This document shows, piece after piece, positions 3,670-61,994 of a stretch of 64,000 bases of DNA. The stretch covers positions 2,913 through 66,912 of the forward strand of contig JBAYJA010000005.1 in the NCBI GenBank assembly GCA_041665345.1, written 5' to 3'. This DNA comes from Patescibacteria group bacterium (lineage in GTDB: Bacteria; Patescibacteriota; Patescibacteriia; PEXW01). The notes under the pieces were generated by a model. The model did not search any database. It saw only the letters and a program-made list of their open reading frames with translations, and was not told the DNA's origin. The first letter of the stretch is position 1. Each line of letters starts with the position of its first letter. The translations under genes and the position numbers were made by a program.

Positions 3670-3798
3670 ACATTTTTTATTAAGTAATTTGCTTATATTC
3701 TAGCAAAAAAATGTGAGTTTGTCAACTAACTTCTACCTTGTCGGATAAGAATGGGTGGGTATAGAATAGAGCTATTCGCAGGTAAATTGCCTAAAAAT

Positions 3799-4221
3799 AT
3801 GGAAACCCAGAAAAAACTTTACCGATCAAAAACCAACCGCGTCATTGCTGGTGTGGCCGGTGGTTTAGGCGAGTATTTTGCCATTGATCCGGTCATTTTT
3901 CGGGTGCTGTTCGTCGCGCTCGCTTTTGCGGGTGGGTCTGGGCTGCTCCTTTACATCATTGGCATGCTCGTCATCCCCGAAGCGTCAGGCGTGACAACCG
4001 CGCAGTCAGAGGTGGTTATTGATAAGGAAGGAAAAGTGCAGAATACCGCCCAAGGCTGGTTGGTTGATCGCCGGAACCTCATTGGCTTGCTCATTGTGGT
4101 GGTGGGCATCATTGCCCTTTTGAATCAGGTAGCCCCCCTACACTGGTTCCGCTGGGACTTCTTCTGGCCAATTGTCATCATCATCGTGGGTGCATACCTC
4201 ATCATGAAAAACCGACGCTAA
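3799..4221 (+). CDS. PspC-domain membrane protein
   Basis: LYRSKTNRVIAGVAGGLGEYFAIDPVIFRVLFV is the PspC domain signature. Start placed at the internal ATG 3799; the ORF opens at 3751. Confidence 0.7.
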   Translation: METQKKLYRSKTNRVIAGVAGGLGEYFAIDPVIFRVLFVALAFAGGSGLLLYIIGMLVIPEASGVTTAQSEVVIDKEGKVQNTAQGWLVDRRNLIGLLIVVVGIIALLNQVAPLHWFRWDFFWPIVIIIVGAYLIMKNRR

Positions 4222-12266: not shown

Positions 12267-14009
12267 ATGCGCCTGCTTTGGACCTACCTCAAAAAGTTTA
12301 AGAAACTCCTGCTTTTTGCCTTGCTCCTGGCCATGATCAACCAGGTGTTCTCCTTATTGGACCCGCAAATTATGCGGCTGCTGGTTGACCGCTACGCTAG
12401 CCGGGTGAGTGAACTTAGCCGGGGTGATTTCTTGCACGGCGTCATTGTGCTGGTTCTCCTCTCCATGGGTACGGCCTTGGTCTCCCGCATCGCTAAGAAT
12501 TTTCAGGATTACTTTGTGAACGTCATTGTACAGCGCATGGGCGCTCGGTTGTACGCGCACAGCGTGAGCCATTCCTTCTCCCTCCCCTACCAGGCATTTG
12601 AAGATCAACGGTCGGGTGAGCTCCTGCAAAAGCTGCAGAAGGCACGAACAGATGCGCAAGCTTTGATTACCAGCGCTATCGGCATTCTTTTTTTCTCCCT
12701 CGTCGGCATCATTTTCGTTCTCAGCTACGCCTTCACGGTGCACTGGTCCATTGGTCTGGTGTACTTTTGCATGATTCCCATTTTGGGTTTCATCACGTTT
12801 TTCATTAGCCGGCAAATTAAAGTTGCGCAGAAGCAGATTGTAGCAGAAATGGCGTCGCTCTCCGGTTCCACCACCGAGACGTTGCGGAATGTGGAGCTGG
12901 TGAAGAGTTTGGGTTTAGATCAACAGGAGATCGAGCGCTTGAATGCCACCAACGACCGGATTCTGCAGTTGGAGCTGAAGAAGATCATTCTGATTCGGAA
13001 ATTCAGTTTTATCCAAGGAACGCTCATCAACACCTTCCGATCCGCTTTGCTCGTGCTCATGTTCTGGCTCATTTTCCAGCAAAGCATTTCTCTGGGTGAG
13101 TACTTCACTTTGCTCATTTACTCCTTCTTCATCTTCAGTCCGTTAGCGGAACTTGGCATGGTTGCCCAGAGCTACCAAGAAGCGCGCGCCAGCATGGAGC
13201 AACTGGAGAAAGTGTTGCAAACACCCGCTGAAGCGAAACCCGAACACCCTCAGCCAATTGCTGCCCTCACCCGCGTTGCCTTTACTCAAGCTGGGTTTGT
13301 GTATGCGACAGCGCCTCGACCAGCAATTGATAATGTCTCCTTGGAAATAACGCAGGGACAAACCGTGGCATTTGTGGGTCCGTCTGGTTCAGGAAAGACA
13401 ACCCTGGTAAAACTCCTCTCTGGTTTGTACCAACCGACGACTGGGACATTACAGTTCAATGCTGTGGATGCGAAGCAAGTGGATTTCCCCGCCTTCCGGC
13501 GCAGGATTGGCTTGGTGGCGCAGGAAACTCAGCTCTTTGCCGGGACTATTCGGGAGAACCTACAGTTTGTGAAACCAAATGCCACGGATCAAGAATGTCT
13601 GGCCGCTTTGGAATCCGCTGCAGCTGGAACCATCCTTCGGCGCTCCAGCCAGGGTTTGGATACGAAGATTGGCGAAGGTGGGCTCAAACTCTCTGGTGGC
13701 GAACGTCAGCGCTTGGCCATTGCCCGTGCCCTGCTGCGCGACCCAGACCTGATTATTTTTGACGAAGCCACCAGCAGTTTGGACTCACTCACGGAGCAGC
13801 AGATCACGGAGACGATCAAGCAGGTGTCCAAGATCAAGCCCAACCTCATGACTGTGCTCATTGCGCACCGGCTTTCCACGGTGAGTCATGCCGACCGGAT
13901 TTTTGTGCTGGAGCAAGGCAGGATCGCCGAGCAGGGTACACATACCGAGCTCCTCGCAAAGGGTGGGCTGTATTCTGCCATGTGGCGACAGCAGGTGGGG
14001 GCGAACTAG
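12267..14009 (+). CDS. ABC transporter, fused permease/ATP-binding exporter (MsbA-like)
   Basis: Six-transmembrane N-terminal domain. Walker A GPSGSGKTT, ABC signature LSGGERQRLAIARA, Walker B LIIFDEATSSLD. Start moved to ATG 12267 because the ORF's 5' end overlaps purL. Confidence 0.85.
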   Translation: MRLLWTYLKKFKKLLLFALLLAMINQVFSLLDPQIMRLLVDRYASRVSELSRGDFLHGVIVLVLLSMGTALVSRIAKNFQDYFVNVIVQRMGARLYAHSVSHSFSLPYQAFEDQRSGELLQKLQKARTDAQALITSAIGILFFSLVGIIFVLSYAFTVHWSIGLVYFCMIPILGFITFFISRQIKVAQKQIVAEMASLSGSTTETLRNVELVKSLGLDQQEIERLNATNDRILQLELKKIILIRKFSFIQGTLINTFRSALLVLMFWLIFQQSISLGEYFTLLIYSFFIFSPLAELGMVAQSYQEARASMEQLEKVLQTPAEAKPEHPQPIAALTRVAFTQAGFVYATAPRPAIDNVSLEITQGQTVAFVGPSGSGKTTLVKLLSGLYQPTTGTLQFNAVDAKQVDFPAFRRRIGLVAQETQLFAGTIRENLQFVKPNATDQECLAALESAAAGTILRRSSQGLDTKIGEGGLKLSGGERQRLAIARALLRDPDLIIFDEATSSLDSLTEQQITETIKQVSKIKPNLMTVLIAHRLSTVSHADRIFVLEQGRIAEQGTHTELLAKGGLYSAMWRQQVGAN

Positions 14010-14109
14010 ATTGAGGGTTTGGGTGTGGCGGTGAGTATAGAGGGAAGGTAGGGGTGAAGAGGCGGCATAGGTAACGACCTGCCATTTTTTGTGAGGTATA
14101 CTTAGGCAT

Positions 14110-15063
14110 ATGCAAACCATTGCCGTGCTTATGGGCGGACCTTCAACAGAGCATGAAGTGTCTCTGGCCTCAGGTGAGAATGTATGTGCCAATCTAGATC
14201 GAAAAAAGTACCAAGTGCTTCCAGTGCGTATTTCCAAAAAAGGTTTGTGGACATTTGGAAATGCAGCGCGCCACTACCCATTACTCGCAGGCATTGCTGA
14301 GTTGCAGCGGAGGAAAATCGCCGTTGTCTTCATCGCACTGCATGGCGTTTTTGGTGAAGATGGAAAGTTGCAGGCGCTATTGGAAACAGCAAACATTCGG
14401 TACACGGGCTCTGGACCCGCAGCCTCAGCGTTGGCAATGGATAAGAAGTTAAGCGGTTTGCTTTTCCAGGCAGCTGGTTTGCGGGTACCAGCCTTCACAC
14501 TTGTTCGCCAGGGGGAGAAAGGAAGACTGTCAAAATTCCCGGTGATTCTCAAGCCCCGATTTGGCGGTTCCAGTGTGGGTATTACGATTGCAAAAAATCC
14601 ACAAGCGTATACCCATGGATTACAAAACGCCTGGAGATATGAGCCGGAGGTTGTTGTGCAGAAGTATATTTCTGGCGTTGAGTTAACCTGCGGGGTTATT
14701 GAATCAGTCAGTGGCAAACCCCAAGCACTGTTGCCCACGTTGATTCGGCCCGTGACTGCACATTTTTTTGGCTACAAGGCAAAGTACACTCCGGGTATGA
14801 CGGAAGAAATTACCCCGGCGCCACTGCCCAATGGAGTGTTACGAAAAATCCAAGCGCAGGCTTTGCTGGCACATACGACGTTAGGCTGCCGTGGCTTTTC
14901 ACGAACCGATTTCATTATCCGGGGACAAACTATGTACGTGTTAGAAACCAATAGTATCCCCGGGTTAACCCAGGAGAGCTTGCTGCCCAAAGCGGCCCGG
15001 GCGAGCGGTTTACCTTTCGCACAATTGCTCGACCGGATTATTCGCGCTGGGGTGAGGCGGTAG
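14110..15063 (+). CDS. ddl: D-alanine--D-alanine ligase
   Basis: IAVLMGGPSTEHEVSLASG at the N-terminus and an ATP-grasp C-terminal region (TPGMTEE...ETNSIPG). Confidence 0.85.
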   Translation: MQTIAVLMGGPSTEHEVSLASGENVCANLDRKKYQVLPVRISKKGLWTFGNAARHYPLLAGIAELQRRKIAVVFIALHGVFGEDGKLQALLETANIRYTGSGPAASALAMDKKLSGLLFQAAGLRVPAFTLVRQGEKGRLSKFPVILKPRFGGSSVGITIAKNPQAYTHGLQNAWRYEPEVVVQKYISGVELTCGVIESVSGKPQALLPTLIRPVTAHFFGYKAKYTPGMTEEITPAPLPNGVLRKIQAQALLAHTTLGCRGFSRTDFIIRGQTMYVLETNSIPGLTQESLLPKAARASGLPFAQLLDRIIRAGVRR

Positions 15064-32788: not shown

Positions 32789-33532
32789 TTAAGTTGCTAG
32801 CAATGCGAGTGCCTGCTGAACGTACGTTTTTGCTTTACGAAGATCCAAATGGTCATTCGCGTCACGGAGCCTTCCCTGCGCGTCAATGCTGCAATCCGCA
32901 AAAGTTCTAAACAACTTCTTGAGCGTGCTGAGATTATTTCCCTCTAATCCACCGGCGACCCCCATCCCATAATTGCCTAAGGCTTTTTCGGTAAACTTCC
33001 AGGCAAGTTCGGGGTCAATCGCTTTCCCCTCTCCTCCACTAAGGTCAAAAAGTATATCAGTGGCTATCCCTTCGTACTTCTGTGTCTCATCTGCACACGC
33101 ATCAATATCCCTATCGAATTCCTGCAGCGCATCGCGCCCAATTTGGAGCACCAGCCTTGCCTTCGGGTACACTTTTCGAAACCTCTGCAGTACCCGTGAG
33201 TCTGGCCAGGCGATATTCAGCTGCAGCCCGTCGCAGTCTTTCCCTGCCAGCTCATACGCGTAGGCCATTTGGTGAAAAAGTCCAATGCTGTCGCTTGTGT
33301 AGTAGTGAAGAAGGTTCAGAATACCTTTTCTTTTTGGAAAAATCTTTTCAATTTCCAATCGGGATGGTGTTTGATTTGGGAAAAGGTCTGGCTCACCAGC
33401 CAGGGTTTTGTTTGATGCAAGCACACCAAGCATCAAGTCATGGCTACATACTTCAGGCAATAGTCGAGCCAAGGTCAAAGCCTGGTGCCTTGATGTAATG
33501 CCTGTTACACCAATGTACGGTCTATTATTCAT
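32789..33532 (-). CDS. TIM-barrel protein, phosphoribosylanthranilate-isomerase-like
   Basis: IGVTGITS near the N-terminus and GVAGGLEGNNL near the C-terminus resemble PRAI. Start moved to MNNRPY (33532); the ORF's first 26 codons are a translation of the 22-bp palindrome. Confidence 0.4.
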   Translation of the reverse strand: MNNRPYIGVTGITSRHQALTLARLLPEVCSHDLMLGVLASNKTLAGEPDLFPNQTPSRLEIEKIFPKRKGILNLLHYYTSDSIGLFHQMAYAYELAGKDCDGLQLNIAWPDSRVLQRFRKVYPKARLVLQIGRDALQEFDRDIDACADETQKYEGIATDILFDLSGGEGKAIDPELAWKFTEKALGNYGMGVAGGLEGNNLSTLKKLFRTFADCSIDAQGRLRDANDHLDLRKAKTYVQQALALLAT

Positions 33533-33591
33533 GTAAAACTCCTTTGTTGGTTTCTTTTCTTTCACCCTAAAGGTGATATCAGAAAAAAGCA

Positions 33592-33612
33592 ATTGTTCCA
33601 CGTGGAACAATC
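33592..33612. promoter_or_regulatory. palindrome AATTGTTCCACGTGGAACAAT (copy 1), about 60 nt upstream of CDS 32789..33532
   Basis: Exact copy of the palindromes at 34167 and 34442. Confidence 0.55.
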
Positions 33613-33733
33613 AAATTTAAATCATTCACGTGTATTAGCATGTACGATCTTTTTTCTCAATCGGGGACAAGCCAATAAGACCACCATTCTCGATTAGGCA
33701 GTTATTAGTGCTGCATTAAAATCTCTGAATCTT

Positions 33734-33869
33734 GGGGTCCCCGCGAACGTGGCGCGCAACCCCGCTACGGGGTGAGCACGCGTTTGTGGGGTAAAGCGAG
33801 GCTTCGCGCGGAGTCCGGAGTGGAGTCGTAGCAACGGCTACACGCAGGGCGGAGCGCGAAACGAGTAGC
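33734..33869 (-). repeat. tRNA-trailer element copy T5 (downstream of tRNA-Ala GGC, separated by a hairpin-rich insertion)
   Basis: Minus strand: gctactcgtttcgcgctccgccctgcgtgtagccgttgctacg...cgcgaagcctcgctttaccccacaaacgcgtgctc...gcgcgccacgttcgcggggacccc; same family as T1-T4. Confidence 0.6.
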
Positions 33870-34060
33870 TGCCCTTCGACTCCTCGTCTGACTCGTCGCT
33901 CAGGGCGCTCGACTCGAAAAATGGCTTGCCGGCCGAAGCCCGAGGAGGATCATTAGTCCTCCTACGCTCAGAAGCTTCGGCCTACGCCGACCGAAGTCGG
34001 CTCTGGCCGACGTAGGTCGGAGGACAGCCTTCGCCCTCGATAATGCTCGAGGGCGAAGGC
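33870..34060 (-). repeat. about 190-nt hairpin-rich insertion between tRNA-Ala(GGC) and trailer T5
   Basis: Contains at least four strong stem-loops, for example ccttcgccctcgagcattatcgagggcgaagg, cgtaggaggactaatgatcctcctcg and gacgagtcagacgaggagtcg. Confidence 0.45.
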
Positions 34061-34136
34061 TGGTGGACCTCAGGAGACTCGAACTCCTTACCTCTTCCAT
34101 GCCATGGAAGCGCTCTACCAGATGAGCTAGAGGCCC
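34061..34136 (-). tRNA. tRNA-Ala (anticodon GGC), CCA encoded
   Basis: Reverse complement gggcctctagctcatctggtagagcgcttccatggcatggaagaggtaaggagttcgagtctcctgaggtccacca folds as a cloverleaf; G3:U70 Ala identity pair; anticodon loop aTGGCat. Confidence 0.85.
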
Positions 34137-34166
34137 ATATTGGGCGTACTTTAACATACCTACCAT

Positions 34167-34188
34167 AATTGTTCCACGTGGAACAATT
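34167..34188. promoter_or_regulatory. palindrome AATTGTTCCACGTGGAACAATT (copy 2), about 30 nt upstream of tRNA-Ala(GGC)
   Basis: Perfect 22-bp inverted repeat with a CACGTG core. Confidence 0.55.
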
Positions 34189-34201
34189 GTAACTAATCCC
34201 T

Positions 34202-34338
34202 GGATCCCGCGAACGTGGCGCGCACCCTGAGCACAGCCGAAGGGGAGCACGCGTTCGTGGGGAAAGGGGCAACCTTGTGGAGGGTGTAGTGGGGTGGACT
34301 TGCTCTGCCACACGAAACCCGACGCAAGGATTGACCCG
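34202..34338 (-). repeat. tRNA-trailer element copy T6 (after tRNA-Ala CGC), with a diverged 5' half
   Basis: 3' half ccccacgaacgcgtgctc...gcgcgccacgttcgcgggatcc matches the family; the 5' half is diverged. Confidence 0.5.
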
Positions 34339-34412
34339 TGGTGGACCTGGGGAGAATCGAACTCCCGTCTCAGCAATGCGAATGCCGTGTTCTACCACTG
34401 AACCACAGGCCC
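34339..34412 (-). tRNA. tRNA-Ala (anticodon CGC), CCA encoded
   Basis: Reverse complement gggcctgtggttcagtggtagaacacggcattcgcattgctgagacgggagttcgattctccccaggtccacca; G3:U70; anticodon loop tTCGCat. Confidence 0.8.
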
Positions 34413-34441
34413 ATATTTGGCTTAGGTAAGCGTTATTTTCT

Positions 34442-34463
34442 AATTGTTCCACGTGGAACAATT
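34442..34463. promoter_or_regulatory. palindrome AATTGTTCCACGTGGAACAATT (copy 3), about 30 nt upstream of tRNA-Ala(CGC)
   Basis: Exact 22-bp palindrome. Confidence 0.55.
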
Positions 34464-34570
34464 AAATTTCAATAATTTGGCTTTATCCTGACCCAAAGCC
34501 ACCTTCTCTTAGCCTGGGTCAAGGGACCCAGGCCACCCACTTTTGAGCTATTCTTTAAGAGTACTAAAAT

Positions 34571-34721
34571 CTTCGGGGGTCCCCACAGATGTGGCGCGCA
34601 GTCTCCCGAGCGTAGTCGAGGGGGACGAGCACGCGTCTGTGGGGTAAAGCGAGGCTTCGTGCGACGGGCGGAGCGGATTCGGTAGCAACCGGATACGCGC
34701 AGCTCTGAGCACGAAACGAGC
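34571..34721 (-). repeat. tRNA-trailer element copy T4 (after tRNA-Arg CCU)
   Basis: Minus strand: gctcgtttcgtgctcagagctgcgcgtatccggttgctaccgaatccg...cacgaagcctcgctttaccccacagacgcgtgctc...gcgcgccacatctgtggggacccccgaag. Confidence 0.65.
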
Positions 34722-34796
34722 TGGTGCCCCCGGAGGGAATCGAACCCCCATCTCTCCCTTAGGACGGGATTGCTCAATCCATTGAGCTACAGGGGC
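34722..34796 (-). tRNA. tRNA-Arg (anticodon CCU), CCA encoded
   Basis: Reverse complement gcccctgtagctcaatggattgagcaatcccgtcctaagggagagatgggggttcgattccctccgggggcacca; cloverleaf with anticodon loop gtCCTaa. Confidence 0.75.
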
Positions 34797-35106
34797 AAAA
34801 AATCCCTTATTTTAGTTACTTATTAGAGTCGCATTATGTAAACGAGCCGCTACCCTATCGACAAAACCATTTCTATGGTCAAAGTAGAGGACTGTACCAA
34901 AAGCAACAGCGATGAGAATGAGAAGAATGTAGAGCTTCTTCAAATCCTTTTTGATATATTGTGCTTGGTCCATAGGCGTTGGTTATGCGTAAGGGATTGT
35001 ACAGATGGTTTTGGTTTTCATCAATGCCAAAAGCCCTCAGCCTTTCGTTTTCCCAGTAAATACTATACCTTGAAAGTGTCTTCCTTTTCACATTGACGAT
35101 ATTCCT

Positions 35107-36265: not shown

Positions 36266-37366
36266 TTAGTACACCCGTTCGTGGTTGGAAGGAAACGGCA
36301 CCACTTTGGTAATGTCGTGCCGGCCCAGAATGTACTGGAATATCCGCGACATGCCAAACCCGCAACCAGCATGTGGCACTGAGTGGTAGCGCCGGAGCGC
36401 TTCAATGTACCAGGCAAAGCCCAGTTTGGCATCCGGGTCTTTTTCCAGTAAGCGTTGGAACATCAGGGAGCTGTAGAGACGTTCCTGGAACACGTCTACC
36501 TGGTGCACCCGGGCGGCCGAACCCACGCACTCACCGCCAAAGGGCACAATGCAGTCCGCGCTCAGGACGTACTCCGGATTTTCCGGATCGGGCTGCATGT
36601 TGAAGAACTTGATGGCTTTGCCGTTGGGATCGGCGGCCAGCAGTGCTTTCATGCGTGGATGTTCCGGGTTGGGGAAGTGGGTAATGAAAATTGGCCCGCC
36701 ACATTCCGCTACCAATTCCTGCTCCTGGGTTGAGGACAAGTCATTCCCCCAGGGAACGTTCATTCGAGCGATAGCTTCTTCGTACCGAAGTCGGGTGAAG
36801 CGAGCTGGGTGATTGGACAGGTGCGTCAACTCCGCAGGGAGACCATATTGGGCTCGCTCTGCAGAAGGGATCGCCATTGCTGCATCCACCAGGGCAGTGA
36901 TTGTCCCTTCAATGTGCTCCAGCAGCTGGGTGAAGCTGAAGGCACCTTCAATTTCCACCATCTCGAATTCAGTCAGGTGCCGGGTGTCTACCCCGCGTTC
37001 TGCGCGTGCCGATGGCCCCACGCAGTACAGGAGGGGGTTCTGCGGGTTGCCCAGCAAGGATTCCAGGTAGAGCTGACCGGTCTGCGCAAAGTACACTCGC
37101 TTCTTCATGGGCTGTCCTTCAGCATCGCGCACAATGAACCAGTGCGGATCATTGCCCACGAAAATTTCAAACAGCGTGTCCACGTTTTCACACGCGCCAG
37201 CTGCCGGGACAATGCGGGGGACAGTTACACGCAGGAAGCCCAGCCGCCGAAGGTGGGCTTCACAGGCCTGCATCATGGCGTCACCAAAGCGAATGACGTC
37301 GAAATTCGGTTCGGCAAAAGGCGTGGCGGTCACCAACGGCAGGGTGGTTTGGGTGGAAGATTCCAT
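36266..37366 (-). CDS. class II aminoacyl-tRNA-synthetase-like catalytic-domain protein (AsnA/AsxRS paralog lacking the anticodon-binding domain)
   Basis: Motif 2 RHLTEFEMVEIE and motif 3 GCGFGMSRIFQYILG; 366 aa with no N-terminal OB domain. Confidence 0.55.
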   Translation of the reverse strand: MESSTQTTLPLVTATPFAEPNFDVIRFGDAMMQACEAHLRRLGFLRVTVPRIVPAAGACENVDTLFEIFVGNDPHWFIVRDAEGQPMKKRVYFAQTGQLYLESLLGNPQNPLLYCVGPSARAERGVDTRHLTEFEMVEIEGAFSFTQLLEHIEGTITALVDAAMAIPSAERAQYGLPAELTHLSNHPARFTRLRYEEAIARMNVPWGNDLSSTQEQELVAECGGPIFITHFPNPEHPRMKALLAADPNGKAIKFFNMQPDPENPEYVLSADCIVPFGGECVGSAARVHQVDVFQERLYSSLMFQRLLEKDPDAKLGFAWYIEALRRYHSVPHAGCGFGMSRIFQYILGRHDITKVVPFPSNHERVY

Positions 37367-59212: not shown

Positions 59213-59455
59213 GTGCGGCAAGGGTTTGGATGCTCGTTAGGGTTTAGGGTATGGAAGGGGGGAGATTTTCTTGGAGGTTGCACCAATCTTTCGTCACGAA
59301 GGCAAGCTTCTCCTGGTAAGCATTACCCCTCCGCACCTCCCCTTAGTAAAGGGGAGGACGGGTTTTGTGGTGAAAGCTCAAGACTCTTCCTATTCGTAAT
59401 TCGTACTTTCGTAGCATCTATTCGTATTTCGTAACTGTATTCGTATATTTGACGA
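59213..59455 (+). repeat. modular intergenic repeat, copy E5 (oriented toward pilT)
   Basis: gcaagggtttggatgctcgttagggtttagggtatggaagg...cccctccgcacctccccttagtaaaggggagg...ctattcgtaattcgtactttcgtagcatctattcgtatttcgtaactgtattcgtat, abutting the TTGACG -35 box. Confidence 0.6.
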
Positions 59456-59477
59456 AAGTGAAAAAACATGCTAGAAT
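59449..59477 (+). promoter_or_regulatory. sigma70-type promoter of pilT
   Basis: TTGACG - 17 nt - TAGAAT. Confidence 0.5.
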
Positions 59478-59663
59478 ACATTTAGAAATAAAGAACAAAT
59501 ATGAAAAAACTTTCACCAGCCTTCCCCTCGGGGCATATTAGCTTGGTCATGCTAGGACAGACCATGTACTACGAAAAGGCATCAATGTCACTGGGCCACC
59601 GCATGGCCAAGCGCATTTTTGGTGCATTGAAAAAGAAACCCGCCCAGCGGTAACGCGTCCTTT

Positions 59664-60710
59664 ATGATTAAAATTGACGACCTGTTTCGCATCGCGGTTG
59701 ACCGCCGGGCCTCCGACGTCCATATTGTTTCCGGCAAACCACCAATCCTCCGCATTGATGGGAATTTAGTTGAGGTTGAAGGTATTCCACCCTTGGCGCC
59801 AAAAGACACCCAGGCGTTGATTTTCTCCATCATGAATGACAAGCAGAAGCAGTTGTTCATTGGTGACCGGGAATTGGATATGTCCTACGAGATTCCCGGT
59901 GGGTATCGCTTCCGTGTGAATTGTCACTGGGAGCGTAACAACGCCGGTTTAGTTGCGCGTATCATTTCCCAGCAAATTCCAGCCATGGAAGATTTGGCCA
60001 TGCCGCAGGTAGTGTACGACCTGATCAAGCAGAAGCAGGGGCTCATTTTGGTCACTGGCCCTACGGGTTGTGGGAAGTCCACTTCCTTGGCTGCCATGAT
60101 TGACTACATTAATAATGACCGTGCGGCGCACATCATCACCCTGGAAGATCCCATTGAATTCATCTACGAATCCAAGAAGTCCATTATCAAGCAGCGCCAA
60201 CTTGGAACGGACATTCTCTCCTTTGGCCAGGCACTGAAGCATGTGTTGCGCCAAGACCCCAACGTGATTTTGGTGGGGGAAATGCGCGATTTGGAAACCA
60301 TTTCTGCCACCATTACCTTGGCGGAGACTGGACACTTGGTTCTGGCTACCCTGCACACCTTCAACGCCGCGCAAACCGTGGATCGCATCATCGACGTGTT
60401 CCCACCCTACCAGCAAGACCAAGTCCGCATTCAGCTCTCCCTCTTCTTAAAGGGAATTATCTCCCAGCAGCTCTTGCCCCGGATGAATGGCGGACGTATT
60501 TCGTCCCGGGAAATTCTCATTAACACGCCAGCAATTGCAAACTTGATTCGGGAGAACAAGGTGGCGCAAATTAAAACCGTCATTCAAACGTCGGCAGAAG
60601 ATGGCATGATCACCATGGACCAAGATTTGAAGCGTTTGTACGACGCGGGGGAAATTGCGGAAGACATTGCCCGGGCGTACATGCTGAATCCAGAAACACT
60701 GAAAGGGTAA
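59664..60710 (+). CDS. pilT: type IV pilus retraction ATPase PilT
   Basis: Walker A GPTGCGKST, Asp box, Walker B, and His box of the PilT/PilU family; 348 aa. Confidence 0.85.
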   Translation: MIKIDDLFRIAVDRRASDVHIVSGKPPILRIDGNLVEVEGIPPLAPKDTQALIFSIMNDKQKQLFIGDRELDMSYEIPGGYRFRVNCHWERNNAGLVARIISQQIPAMEDLAMPQVVYDLIKQKQGLILVTGPTGCGKSTSLAAMIDYINNDRAAHIITLEDPIEFIYESKKSIIKQRQLGTDILSFGQALKHVLRQDPNVILVGEMRDLETISATITLAETGHLVLATLHTFNAAQTVDRIIDVFPPYQQDQVRIQLSLFLKGIISQQLLPRMNGGRISSREILINTPAIANLIRENKVAQIKTVIQTSAEDGMITMDQDLKRLYDAGEIAEDIARAYMLNPETLKG

Positions 60711-60800
60711 GCAATATAGTCTACGAAGTGCAATAAACGAGCCCCGCAGCCAGCGGGGTTTCTTGCATATCAGCGCGTTCACTGCTACGTTGGAAGCCGA

Positions 60801-60876
60801 GCGCCCGTAGCTCAACGGATAGAGTACATGGCTTCGAACCATGGGGTTGGGGGTTCGATTCCCTCCGGGCGCACCA
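60801..60876 (+). tRNA. tRNA-Arg (anticodon UCG), CCA encoded
   Basis: gcgcccgtagctcaacggatagagtacatggcttcgaaccatggggttgggggttcgattccctccgggcgcacca; anticodon loop cTTCGaa. Confidence 0.8.
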
Positions 60877-61026
60877 GCTCGTTTCGTGCTCCGCCCTGCG
60901 TGTAGCCGTTGCTACGGCTCCACTCCGGACTCCGCACGAAGCCTCGCTTTGCCCCACAAACCCGTGCTCCCCTTCGATTCGCTTCGCTCACTCAGGGTCC
61001 GCTTCGTGTTTGTGGGGACCCCGAAG
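60877..61026 (+). repeat. tRNA-trailer element copy T1
   Basis: gctcgtttcgtgctccgccctgcgtgtagccgttgctacggctcc...cacgaagcctcgctttgccccacaaac...gtttgtggggaccccgaag; starts at the first nucleotide after CCA. Confidence 0.65.
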
Positions 61027-61033
61027 AAAGCTC

Positions 61034-61110
61034 GGGCAACTAGCTCAGTTGGTTAGAGCGTCTCGTTTACACCGAGAAGGTCGTAGGTTCGACTCCTACG
61101 TTGCCCACCA
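61034..61110 (+). tRNA. tRNA-Val (anticodon UAC), CCA encoded
   Basis: gggcaactagctcagttggttagagcgtctcgtttacaccgagaaggtcgtaggttcgactcctacgttgcccacca; anticodon loop tTTACac. Confidence 0.85.
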
Positions 61111-61247
61111 GCTCGTTTCGCGCTCAGAGCTGCGCGTATCCGGTTGCTACCGAATCCGCTCCGCCCGTCGCGCGAAGCCTCGCTTTACCCCAGAAACGCG
61201 TGCTCGTCCTGATGCAGGACTGCGCGCCACATTTCTGGGGACCCCGG
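61111..61247 (+). repeat. tRNA-trailer element copy T2
   Basis: gctcgtttcgcgctcagagctgcgcgtatccggttgctaccgaatccg...cgcgaagcctcgctttaccccagaaacgcgtgctcgtcctgatgcaggactgcgcgccacatttctggggaccccgg. Confidence 0.65.
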
Positions 61248-61257
61248 AAAAAATTAT

Positions 61258-61333
61258 GGGCCCTTAGCTCATTTGGTAGAGCGCCGCGTTTGCAACGCGG
61301 AGGTGACCGGTTCGAGCCCGGTAGGGTCCACCA
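61258..61333 (+). tRNA. tRNA-Ala (anticodon UGC), CCA encoded
   Basis: gggcccttagctcatttggtagagcgccgcgtttgcaacgcggaggtgaccggttcgagcccggtagggtccacca; G3:U70; anticodon loop tTTGCaa. Confidence 0.85.
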
Positions 61334-61470
61334 GCTCGTTTCGCGCTCAGAGCTGCGCGTAGACGTTGCTACGTCTCCGTTCCGCCCTTCGCGCGAAGCC
61401 TCGCTTTGCCCCACGAACGCGTGCTCGTCCTGCGGCAGGACTACGCGCCACATTCGTGGGGACCCCGGAG
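61334..61470 (+). repeat. tRNA-trailer element copy T3
   Basis: gctcgtttcgcgctcagagctgcgcgtagacgttgctacgtctcc...cgcgaagcctcgctttgccccacgaacgcgtgctcgtcctgcggcaggactacgcgccacattcgtggggaccccggag. Confidence 0.65.
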
Positions 61471-61595
61471 ATGCTGAGCATATTTGAGTAATATTACTCC
61501 GCACGAATTTCGTCCCACTGCGTTTTTCACAGCGGCAGCTTTTTTCAGATACCAGTGCATTGCCATGACGAACACAGAATTGCTACTCTATTATT

Positions 61596-61994
61596 ATGAC
61601 TAACGAGATAACCGCTTACAATAATTTACAAGCAAAGAAGGAGAAAAGCATTTGCGATGCCCTACGTCGGGTGATTGATGCCTCTTTGCCAAAGGCTGAG
61701 AGTAAAGTGTGGCACGGTGGGCCAGTGTGGTTTTTGGCTGGGAATCCAATTGTTGGTTACTCGCTGCGGAAGCAGGGTGTGCAGCTTCTGTTCTGGAGCG
61801 GTATGTCGTTTGCTGAAACAGACCTCCTGCCCGTTGGGAACGTCAAAAAGTTCAAGGCTGCTGGTGTTATCTACACTGACCGTAAGGAGCTGAAGCATGC
61901 ACTCATCAAACGTTGGCTGCGGAAAGCAAAAACCATCCAGTGGGATTATAAGAATATTATCAAGCGACGAGGGAAACTGGTGCGGCTGAAGTAG
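61596..61994 (+). CDS. DUF1801 (YdhG-like) domain protein
   Basis: LRRVIDASLPKAESKVWHGGPVWFLAGNPIVGYSL matches the DUF1801 pattern. Confidence 0.55.
   Translation: MTNEITAYNNLQAKKEKSICDALRRVIDASLPKAESKVWHGGPVWFLAGNPIVGYSLRKQGVQLLFWSGMSFAETDLLPVGNVKKFKAAGVIYTDRKELKHALIKRWLRKAKTIQWDYKNIIKRRGKLVRLK

Follow-up and report, generated by a model that had tools for sequence, protein, structure and literature searches.

A probable new structured RNA encoded immediately 3' of tRNA CCA ends in Patescibacteria

The maturation of transfer RNA (tRNA) 3' ends is poorly understood in reduced-genome bacteria such as Patescibacteria. Here, we describe an element of 135–150 nucleotides (nt), the trailer, which follows the tRNA genes in a 64,000-nt stretch of DNA from a Patescibacteria group bacterium (assembly GCA_041665345.1, contig JBAYJA010000005.1, positions 2,913 to 66,912); the whole of this stretch is referred to as the window. 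The trailer is probably a new tRNA-linked structured RNA. It accompanies all six tRNA genes of the window on the tRNA strand, and its copies share a fold of two long imperfect hairpins. Its novelty lies in four features taken together: a large fold backed by covariation, a junction that falls exactly at +1 after the CCA end, an occurrence at many tRNAs together with a sister family at transfer-messenger RNA (tmRNA), and conservation across a small clade of uncultivated groundwater bacteria. A fold fused exactly to the CCA of many tRNAs would point to a processing step or an RNA–protein recognition event hitherto undescribed or, alternatively, to a new mode of existence for selfish RNA modules within stable-RNA genes.

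The tRNA genes were called with ARAGORN and confirmed with the Rfam tRNA model; three lie on the minus strand (34061–34796) and three on the plus strand (60801–61333). A covariance model built from 19 trailer copies (R1) was searched over the whole 64 kb and gave exactly six matches, each 3' of a tRNA on the tRNA strand, with no stand-alone copy away from a tRNA. This confirms the proposal of an earlier sequence-only reading of the DNA that all six tRNA genes carry the same trailer family. The features of the two clusters, each in the direction of its tRNA genes, are as follows.

34722–34796, minus strand: tRNA-Arg(CCT), CCA encoded, Rfam tRNA model 57.3 bits
34576–34721, minus strand: trailer T4 (family 1), following tRNA-Arg(CCT) at +1 after CCA; R1 142.1 bits; fold −63.3 kcal/mol, z −4.4
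34339–34412, minus strand: tRNA-Ala(CGC), CCA encoded
34201–34338, minus strand: trailer T6 (family 1 variant), following tRNA-Ala(CGC) with a 2-nt gap; R1 match 34201–34336, 71.7 bits, E ~9e-15
34061–34136, minus strand: tRNA-Ala(GGC), CCA encoded
33867–34060, minus strand: family-2 trailer module (previously a '190-nt insertion'), opening with GCCTTCGC at +1 after CCA; fold −105.3 kcal/mol, z −5.8
33734–33866, minus strand: trailer T5 (family 1), 194 nt past tRNA-Ala(GGC); R1 133.5 bits
60801–60876, plus strand: tRNA-Arg(TCG)
60877–61022, plus strand: trailer T1, following tRNA-Arg(TCG) at +1; R1 119.6 bits; 11 nt before the next tRNA
61034–61110, plus strand: tRNA-Val(TAC)
61111–61245, plus strand: trailer T2, following tRNA-Val(TAC) at +1; R1 149.7 bits; fold z −4.8; 12 nt before the next tRNA
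61258–61333, plus strand: tRNA-Ala(TGC)
61334–61466, plus strand: trailer T3, following tRNA-Ala(TGC) at +1; R1 143.0 bits; last unit of the operon

The trailers have a GC content of 64–70%, compared with ~50% for the window. Their motifs occur in a constant order: GCTCGTTTCG, ~50 nt, CGAAGCCTCGCTTTNCCCCA, CGTGCTC, a variable hairpin, GCGCGCCAC and the end GGGGACCCC. Four of the six tRNAs have this string immediately behind their CCA; for T5 it begins 194 nt further on, and T6 has a variant 5' half. The window contains five occurrences of a 20-nt core pattern, where shuffles predict 0.02.

Fold and covariation of the trailer

RNAalifold predicted two long imperfect hairpins both for the five clear copies of the window and for a set of 19 copies drawn from several genomes. 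Domain 1 is closed by G1C2 with GC and by the helix P1, GUUUCGYGC/GCRCGAAGC, with a CUC bulge left over; its closing pairing GCUCGUUUCG/CGAAGCCUCGC is invariant. Further in, domain 1 has an internal loop that is conserved and an apical hairpin that varies. Domain 2 comes after a UUUR linker; its basal helix CCCCAnnnnn/nnnnnUGGGG is surmounted by a GCGUGC/GCGCGC helix and a variable tip of 0–45 nt, and an unpaired ACCCC tail forms the 3' end of the element. Invariant positions are concentrated at the junction beside the CCA.

In a MAFFT alignment, which was fitted to no model, compensatory change was observed in 16 of 32 pairs. A second alignment brought together 39 distinct copies, taken from the window and from related contigs that mostly belong to metagenome-assembled genomes (MAGs) labelled Patescibacteria. 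Since it was fitted to the model it is biased toward the structure; in it 96.4% of cells pair, compared with 38–49% in slid-partner controls, and 26 of the 32 pairs are changed on both sides, values attained in 0 of 500 shuffles. One triplet of the basal helix of the 3' hairpin occurs in four compensatory variants, CAA/UUG, GAA/UUC, CGA/UCG and CAG/CUG, the fourth of which is supplied by T4 after tRNA-Arg(CCU), just as the sequence-only reading had stated. The two-hairpin fold is thus strongly supported. It is, furthermore, specific to the tRNA-sense strand, since 36 of the 39 copies retain a U.G wobble in P1 and G.U cells outnumber A.C cells (55 versus 19). An all-against-all covariation scan detected no pseudoknot or tertiary pair, and the sole extra pair extends domain 2.

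The core motifs are invariant although the pilT gene beside tRNA-Arg(TCG) is only 73–75% identical between the window and Patescibacteria-labelled contigs. The view that the copies form a repeat family under selection is borne out at the level of structure by the compensatory changes, and the family was found in other genomes as well.

No Rfam 15 family was matched by the trailers, among them RtT, HDV-like, hatchet, hammerhead, twister, tRNA-like elements, 6S and Y RNA: at the gathering threshold only tRNAs score across the window, and at E values up to 10, over 33400–35000 (T4, T5 and T6), no match fell on a trailer. At the gathering threshold 12 of the related loci gave only tRNA and 23S ribosomal RNA (rRNA); tmRNA was added when one locus was scanned by E value. 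The literature searched, including work on Patescibacteria tRNA group I introns and on 224 RNA motifs, held no account of trailers of this kind. The trailer is a well-supported candidate for a new RNA family, given its 39 copies, the 26 covarying pairs and the lack of an Rfam match.

Variant copies and a second trailer family

T6 and T5 both adopt the two-domain architecture of the other copies, which was one of the checks proposed with the sequence-only reading. That reading described T6, after tRNA-Ala(CGC), as a copy decayed in its 5' half. The 5' half has indeed diverged in sequence and the 3' half is retained, but the base of domain 2 and the tail are weakened. Simple decay does not hold, however: P1 is formed by CAAUCCUUG/CAAGGUUG in place of GUUUCGYGC/GCRCGAAGC, fully compensated relative to the main type, and the closing helix is GGG/CCC. 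In addition, a contig from a relative (L030; related loci are numbered in this way throughout) carries a copy after tRNA-Gln with a T6-like CGGGUCA start and architecture. Because its helices are rebuilt with other sequence and it has this counterpart, T6 looks like a variant subfamily and not simply a decayed copy. T5 is without the CCA junction, being preceded by GCT, and has two A.C mismatches in the domain-2 basal helix. Since its 5' arm is T1-like and its 3' arm T6-like, the sequence suggests that T5 may be a recombinant.

The segment of ~190 nt between tRNA-Ala(GGC) and T5 had been regarded as an anonymous, hairpin-rich insertion. Its size and structure are as described (194 nt; −105.3 kcal/mol, z = −5.8), whereas its anonymity is not. 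In two relatives, L028 (3317–3965) and L032 (~3690–4000, minus strand), a tmRNA gene missed by ARAGORN was identified with RF00023 (81.5 bits). The CCA of both is followed at +1 by GCCTTCGC, the same start as that of window 33867–34060 after its CCA, and the modules GGCGAAGGCTGYCCTCCG and GGGCTTCGGCYGGCRRGCCAT are common to the 194-nt segment and the two tmRNA trailers. Local alignments of the segment with these trailers scored 38 and 37; across 300 shuffles the mean score was 18 and the highest 29, so that none reached the observed values. Judged by this similarity, the segment is a member of a second, modular trailer family, seen after tmRNA in relatives; tRNA-Ala(GGC) therefore bears two stacked trailer modules. 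In this lineage, CCA-ending stable-RNA genes generally attract such modules.

Two further observations concern sequences of this kind. The 23S rRNA gene of L034 (12187–14583) has a GC-rich expansion of ~120 nt at the helix-45 position (~13715–13840), whose modules GTCCTCC..GGAGGAC and CCTTCGCC..GGCGAAGG resemble the family-2 trailer in weak matches of 15–18 nt (E 0.04–0.17). A motif GAAGGGCAGC(A/T)(G/A)CGA recurs in trailers or insertions near tRNAs, namely at window 33867–33885, L032 ~130–150, L007 ~2700–2720 and L027 ~13790–13810, and may represent a third small repeat family.

Linkage to CCA ends, distribution and mosaicism

Among the 39 distinct copies, 36 are preceded by CCA and 26 start 0–2 nt behind an ARAGORN-called tRNA; the strand is in every case that of the tRNA. 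The tRNAs concerned are of the Arg, Val, Ala, Thr, Trp, Ser, Leu, Asn, Asp, Gly, Pro and Met types; tRNA-Gln is followed by a lower-scoring variant copy outside the set of 39. Approximately 15 of the ~51 tRNAs called in related contigs have no trailer. The linkage is therefore strong but not universal, and the expectation that other tRNA loci carry the element holds for most of them and fails for this minority. A supply of the CCA by the trailer was ruled out, as every tRNA gene in these contigs encodes CCA, with or without a trailer.

When 185,579 species genomes were scanned with an exact pattern, 18 loci were obtained; three of these (L004, L008 and L018) were set aside as 20-mer matches that arose by chance in unrelated bacteria. 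The remaining loci belong to MAGs labelled Patescibacteria or Candidatus Kerfeldbacteria and to two third-party annotation (TPA) bins labelled 'uncultured Gammaproteobacteria'. A different pattern, applied to Joint Genome Institute (JGI) and ENA metagenome contigs, gave only 15 loci, which came from Hainich groundwater and two JGI samples. No trailer copies were found in viral contigs, phage records or plasmid records.

The two TPA bins, CAZBMC01 (L006, L007, L011 and L016) and CAZAMC01 (L012 and L017), contain the trailer together with tRNA synteny. The pilT gene of the window is 90% identical to that of L016 and 73–75% identical to those of three Patescibacteria-labelled contigs, and the order pilT–tRNA-Arg(TCG) is common to the window, L016 and these three contigs. 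Because of this identity and synteny with Patescibacteria-labelled contigs, the window would belong to their lineage, and the Gammaproteobacteria label of the two bins is probably wrong.

The copies are mosaic. Domain subtypes are common across genomes but shuffled among tRNA loci: domain 1 of T1 finds its match (94% identity) in the third rather than the orthologous first unit of the L016 operon, and domain 2 of T1 matches L007, where it stands in a Leu context. Extra tandem domain-2 units occur in L001, L006, L014 and L023. When open reading frames (ORFs) of at least 90 amino acids (aa) from the related loci were clustered, only syntenic housekeeping genes and spurious ORFs over the repeats were obtained; the recurrent neighbours are pilT, FG-GAP proteins, phosphoribosyl pyrophosphate synthase, an ATP-binding cassette ATPase and phosphoglucomutase. 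No mobile-element gene was seen beside the copies among five annotated neighbour proteins, the ORFs not all having been scanned for transposase domains.

In L016 (2343–6611), the closest relative by pilT (90%), the Arg-Val-Ala operon and its trailers are turned around with respect to the genes on either side, when compared with the window (59448–61993), and ~1.6 kb of extra DNA lies on one side.

Possible origins and known relatives of the trailer

The explanation that we favour, at roughly an even chance, is that the trailer is a co-transcribed RNA excised by tRNA processing, whose copies are exchanged by recombination. A lineage-specific module of 135–150 nt encoded immediately 3' of the tRNA CCA, with a related second family after tmRNA, would be transcribed within the tRNA precursor and would fold into the two long imperfect hairpins. 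An endonucleolytic cut at CCA|G, combined with an RNase P cut at the next tRNA or with a downstream terminator, would free it. The conserved junction core could serve as a recognition surface for a 3'-end-processing activity or another RNA-binding partner. In this way the module would define and insulate the tRNA 3' end and may itself persist as a small RNA, and its copies would be spread and homogenised among CCA-ending RNA genes by recombination. The gaps between T1 and tRNA-Val and between T2 and tRNA-Ala are only 11–12 nt; no sigma-70-like promoter was called within them and no terminator at the T1 and T2 ends, so T1 and T2 would have to be read through and removed.

Several points weigh against this explanation. 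Orthologous tRNAs may be without the module, as Arg(TCG) in L015, Ser(GGA) in L005 and Thr(TGT) in L001, and with its presence so variable it cannot be essential for the maturation of any given tRNA. Some copies (in L005, L015, L020, L023 and L014) do not stand behind a full tRNA; the one in L005 lies 24 nt past the stop codon of a protein gene, still after CCA. A GC-rich structure abutting the CCA would hinder 3' exonucleases rather than help them, so that a dedicated endonuclease must be postulated. Finally, what is observed here is the existence, position, fold, strand specificity, distribution and mosaicism of the trailers; from these we infer their transcription, processing sites and accumulation.

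The closest known kinds of element are RNAs derived from the spacers and trailers of tRNA operons; REP-like repeats and 23S rRNA intervening sequences are more loosely comparable. The trailer is contiguous with CCA and on the same strand as the tRNA, which is the position that characterizes spacer- and trailer-derived RNAs of tRNA transcripts (the external and internal transcribed spacer, or ETS/ITS, class). One example is RtT, whose Rfam family is presumably RF00391. At E values up to 10 over 33400–35000, no RtT match was obtained for the trailers. One account describes RtT RNA, from the repeats of the Escherichia coli tyrT operon, as freed from the tRNA primary transcript as a small RNA of unclear function (Bosl and Kersten 1991, via PMC3318445). 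Like the trailers, these repeats are, in that account, units downstream of a tRNA in a tRNA operon, in several copies per genome. The trailers differ from RtT, as it is portrayed there, in starting exactly at +1 after CCA, in following at least 12 tRNA species, in their covariation-supported fold and in occurring in several genomes of an unrelated lineage. A second example is 3'ETS-leuZ, which is summarized in a secondary source as a 53-nt single-copy small RNA sponge that pairs with RyhB and RybB (Lalaouna et al. 2015, via PMC8166272). Like the origin that we propose for the trailers, it is, in that summary, a functional RNA cut by tRNA-processing nucleases from the trailer of a polycistronic tRNA transcript. 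Unlike 3'ETS-leuZ as summarized, the trailers are 135–150 nt long, multi-copy and highly structured.

The intervening sequences at helix 45 of 23S rRNA are GC-rich hairpin modules within stable-RNA genes that are removed by RNase III. The trailers are likewise GC-rich hairpin modules at stable-RNA genes, and we infer processing by RNase III for both. In MALAT1–mascRNA, plant tRNA–snoRNA dicistrons and the stable RNAs of the phage T4 tRNA cluster, a non-tRNA RNA is fused to a tRNA or tRNA-like unit and an end is generated by RNase P or RNase Z. We know of none among these that is a repeated module on many different tRNAs; they concern other organisms and partners, and a weak mascRNA match in the window falls on a tRNA and not on a trailer. 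By sequence or structure, the trailer belongs to none of the RtT, 3'ETS-leuZ, REP-like or 23S intervening-sequence families.

A less probable reading, and the main rival, is that the trailer is a selfish structured repeat with no host function, which colonizes the 3' ends of CCA-terminated RNA genes. These ends would be safe harbours since processing removes the repeat, the conserved core would serve its own propagation, and it could spread by recombination or via an RNA intermediate that is attached to mature CCA-3'OH ends by joining or template switching. Such a repeat would readily explain the variable presence at orthologous tRNAs of related genomes and the modular, mosaic copies with their tandem domain-2 units. 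It would also suit the stand-alone copies that still follow CCA, some of them (L030 and L007) the CCA of degenerate tRNA 3' ends. The exact +1 junction across at least 12 unrelated tRNA types is most simply obtained by a process that 'sees' the mature CCA end. In L032, furthermore, a 21-nt tRNA-Asp 3' end (CGATTCCCTTCGGGTCCGCCA) is duplicated exactly (61–81 and 221–241), and the duplication brackets a 139-nt hairpin-rich insert between tRNA-Asp and its trailer. The lineage also tolerates other removable RNA insertions, such as tRNA group I introns (PMC13011429) and the helix-45 expansion of L034. Nevertheless, no transposase, reverse transcriptase or integrase recurs beside the copies, where the five annotated proteins are housekeeping; the elements have no terminal inverted repeats and no target-site duplications; and the phage, plasmid and viral collections hold no copies. 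The invariance of the core next to a flanking gene of 73–75% identity is a further point against it, although this equally fits selection for propagation.

As an observation in its own right, the L032 duplication resembles the footprint of integration into a tRNA 3' end. In L027, a second tRNA-Val(GAC)-like sequence (14053–14172, minus strand) scores only 29.4 bits with the tRNA model; its D-loop region apparently holds ~45 nt of inserted sequence, and a partial trailer stands behind it.

Known mobile repeats were compared individually. REP, BIME, REPIN and MITE-type repeats are GC-rich, hairpin-forming, multi-copy, intergenic and mosaic, and their presence varies among relatives. The trailers share GC-richness, hairpins, copy number, mosaicism and variable presence with them; they differ in being much longer than REPs and in their fixed orientation, exact CCA junction and strand-specific G.U pairs. 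A MITE was rejected, as the ends GCTCGTTTCG... and ...GGGGACCCC are not inverted repeats and the flanks are CCA on the 5' side and variable on the 3' side. REP/REPIN elements, RAYT-mobilized palindromes of ~20–40 nt, were rejected on account of the 135–150-nt length, the two different hairpins and the constant co-orientation with tRNA; no RAYT was seen among the few annotated neighbours. PATEs derived from IS200/IS605 have subterminal hairpins at both ends and insert 3' of a fixed 4–5-nt target. The trailers resemble them superficially in their two hairpin domains and in the CCA before 36 of 39 copies; only these 3 nt are fixed, the discriminator base being variable, which is too little to account for the specificity for tRNA ends. 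An integron attC site was also rejected: there are two hairpins, no RYYYAAC...GTTRRRY core sites at either end and no integrase among the annotated neighbours.

It is unlikely, but worth stating, that the module is a novel type of RNA element which sets the 3' end of CCA-terminated RNAs on its own, whether by a new self-cleaving fold or by offering a dedicated recognition platform to a lineage-specific endonuclease, and which moves between tRNA and tmRNA genes via an RNA intermediate on mature CCA-3'OH ends. If true, such a 3'-end-specifying module would be a 'trailer parasite', resembling an intron in guaranteeing its own removal.

Slightly less likely again is a hairpin terminator or insulator for tRNA genes that acts independently of a U-tract. 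Stable GC-rich hairpins (64–70% versus ~50%) directly after genes would suit this role, as would the L005 copy just past a stop codon and the minus-strand cluster, in which a promoter-like site follows T4 and a palindrome, described below, follows both T4 and T6 before the next tRNA. However, no T-run stands behind the module and a terminator scan called nothing at the 3' ends of T1–T6; efficient termination at T1 and T2 would silence tRNA-Val and tRNA-Ala; and a terminator has no need for 135 nt with invariant junction and internal-loop nucleotides. An intrinsic (Rho-independent) terminator was rejected for want of a U-tract, as the tails read GAAGAAAGC, GGAAAAAAUU and GGAGAUGCU.

We consider it quite improbable that the trailer is a new self-cleaving ribozyme that would cut at its own 5' end, as hepatitis delta virus (HDV)-like and hatchet ribozymes do, and so release the tRNA with its CCA. 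The element does begin with the nucleotide that directly follows CCA, and invariant nucleotides and the conserved U.G wobble lie beside the would-be cleavage site. On the other hand, no ribozyme family was found at E values up to 10 over 33400–35000 (T4, T5 and T6), the covariation scan showed no pseudoknot and hence no HDV-like nested double pseudoknot, and the exchange of the whole 'invariant' P1 in the T6/L030 variant is awkward for a sequence-specific active site. An HDV-like ribozyme was also rejected by structure: the ACCCC tail has no G-rich partner after the 5' strand of P1, and there is no pseudoknot.

Protein coding can be dismissed: the minus-strand ORFs 33900–34376, 33982–34461 and 34469–34777 are open over 102–159 aa, but they run through three genuine tRNA genes and have no Pfam match, and the sequence evolves by compensatory pair changes and hairpin-tip indels. 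These three ORFs are spurious, as the sequence-only reading had held. A fourth, 34548–34751, lies almost wholly inside T4; being below the 80-aa cut-off of the ORF listing, it was outside the Pfam-tested set of three. Where ORFs are wrongly called across tRNA clusters of these MAGs, the trailers account for it.

Three copies of a perfect 18-nt palindrome, TTGTTCCACGTGGAACAA, were found where 0.03 are expected, and within the window they are confined to the minus-strand tRNA cluster.

34444–34461: copy 1, upstream of tRNA-Ala(CGC), where it falls inside the spacer and –10-like hexamer of a promoter-like site
34169–34186: copy 2, ~30 nt upstream of tRNA-Ala(GGC)
33593–33610: copy 3, between T5 and the next gene, followed by a T-run and terminator-like on the minus strand

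Its 16-nt core is also present upstream of tRNA-Ala(CGC) in L024. The palindrome is probably an operator or promoter element. Also on the minus strand, a 366-aa ORF (36266–37366) matches only the catalytic core of asparagine–tRNA ligase (profile positions 132–449), below the curated cut-off, and may be an AsnA-like protein or a truncated paralogue rather than a complete asparaginyl-tRNA synthetase.

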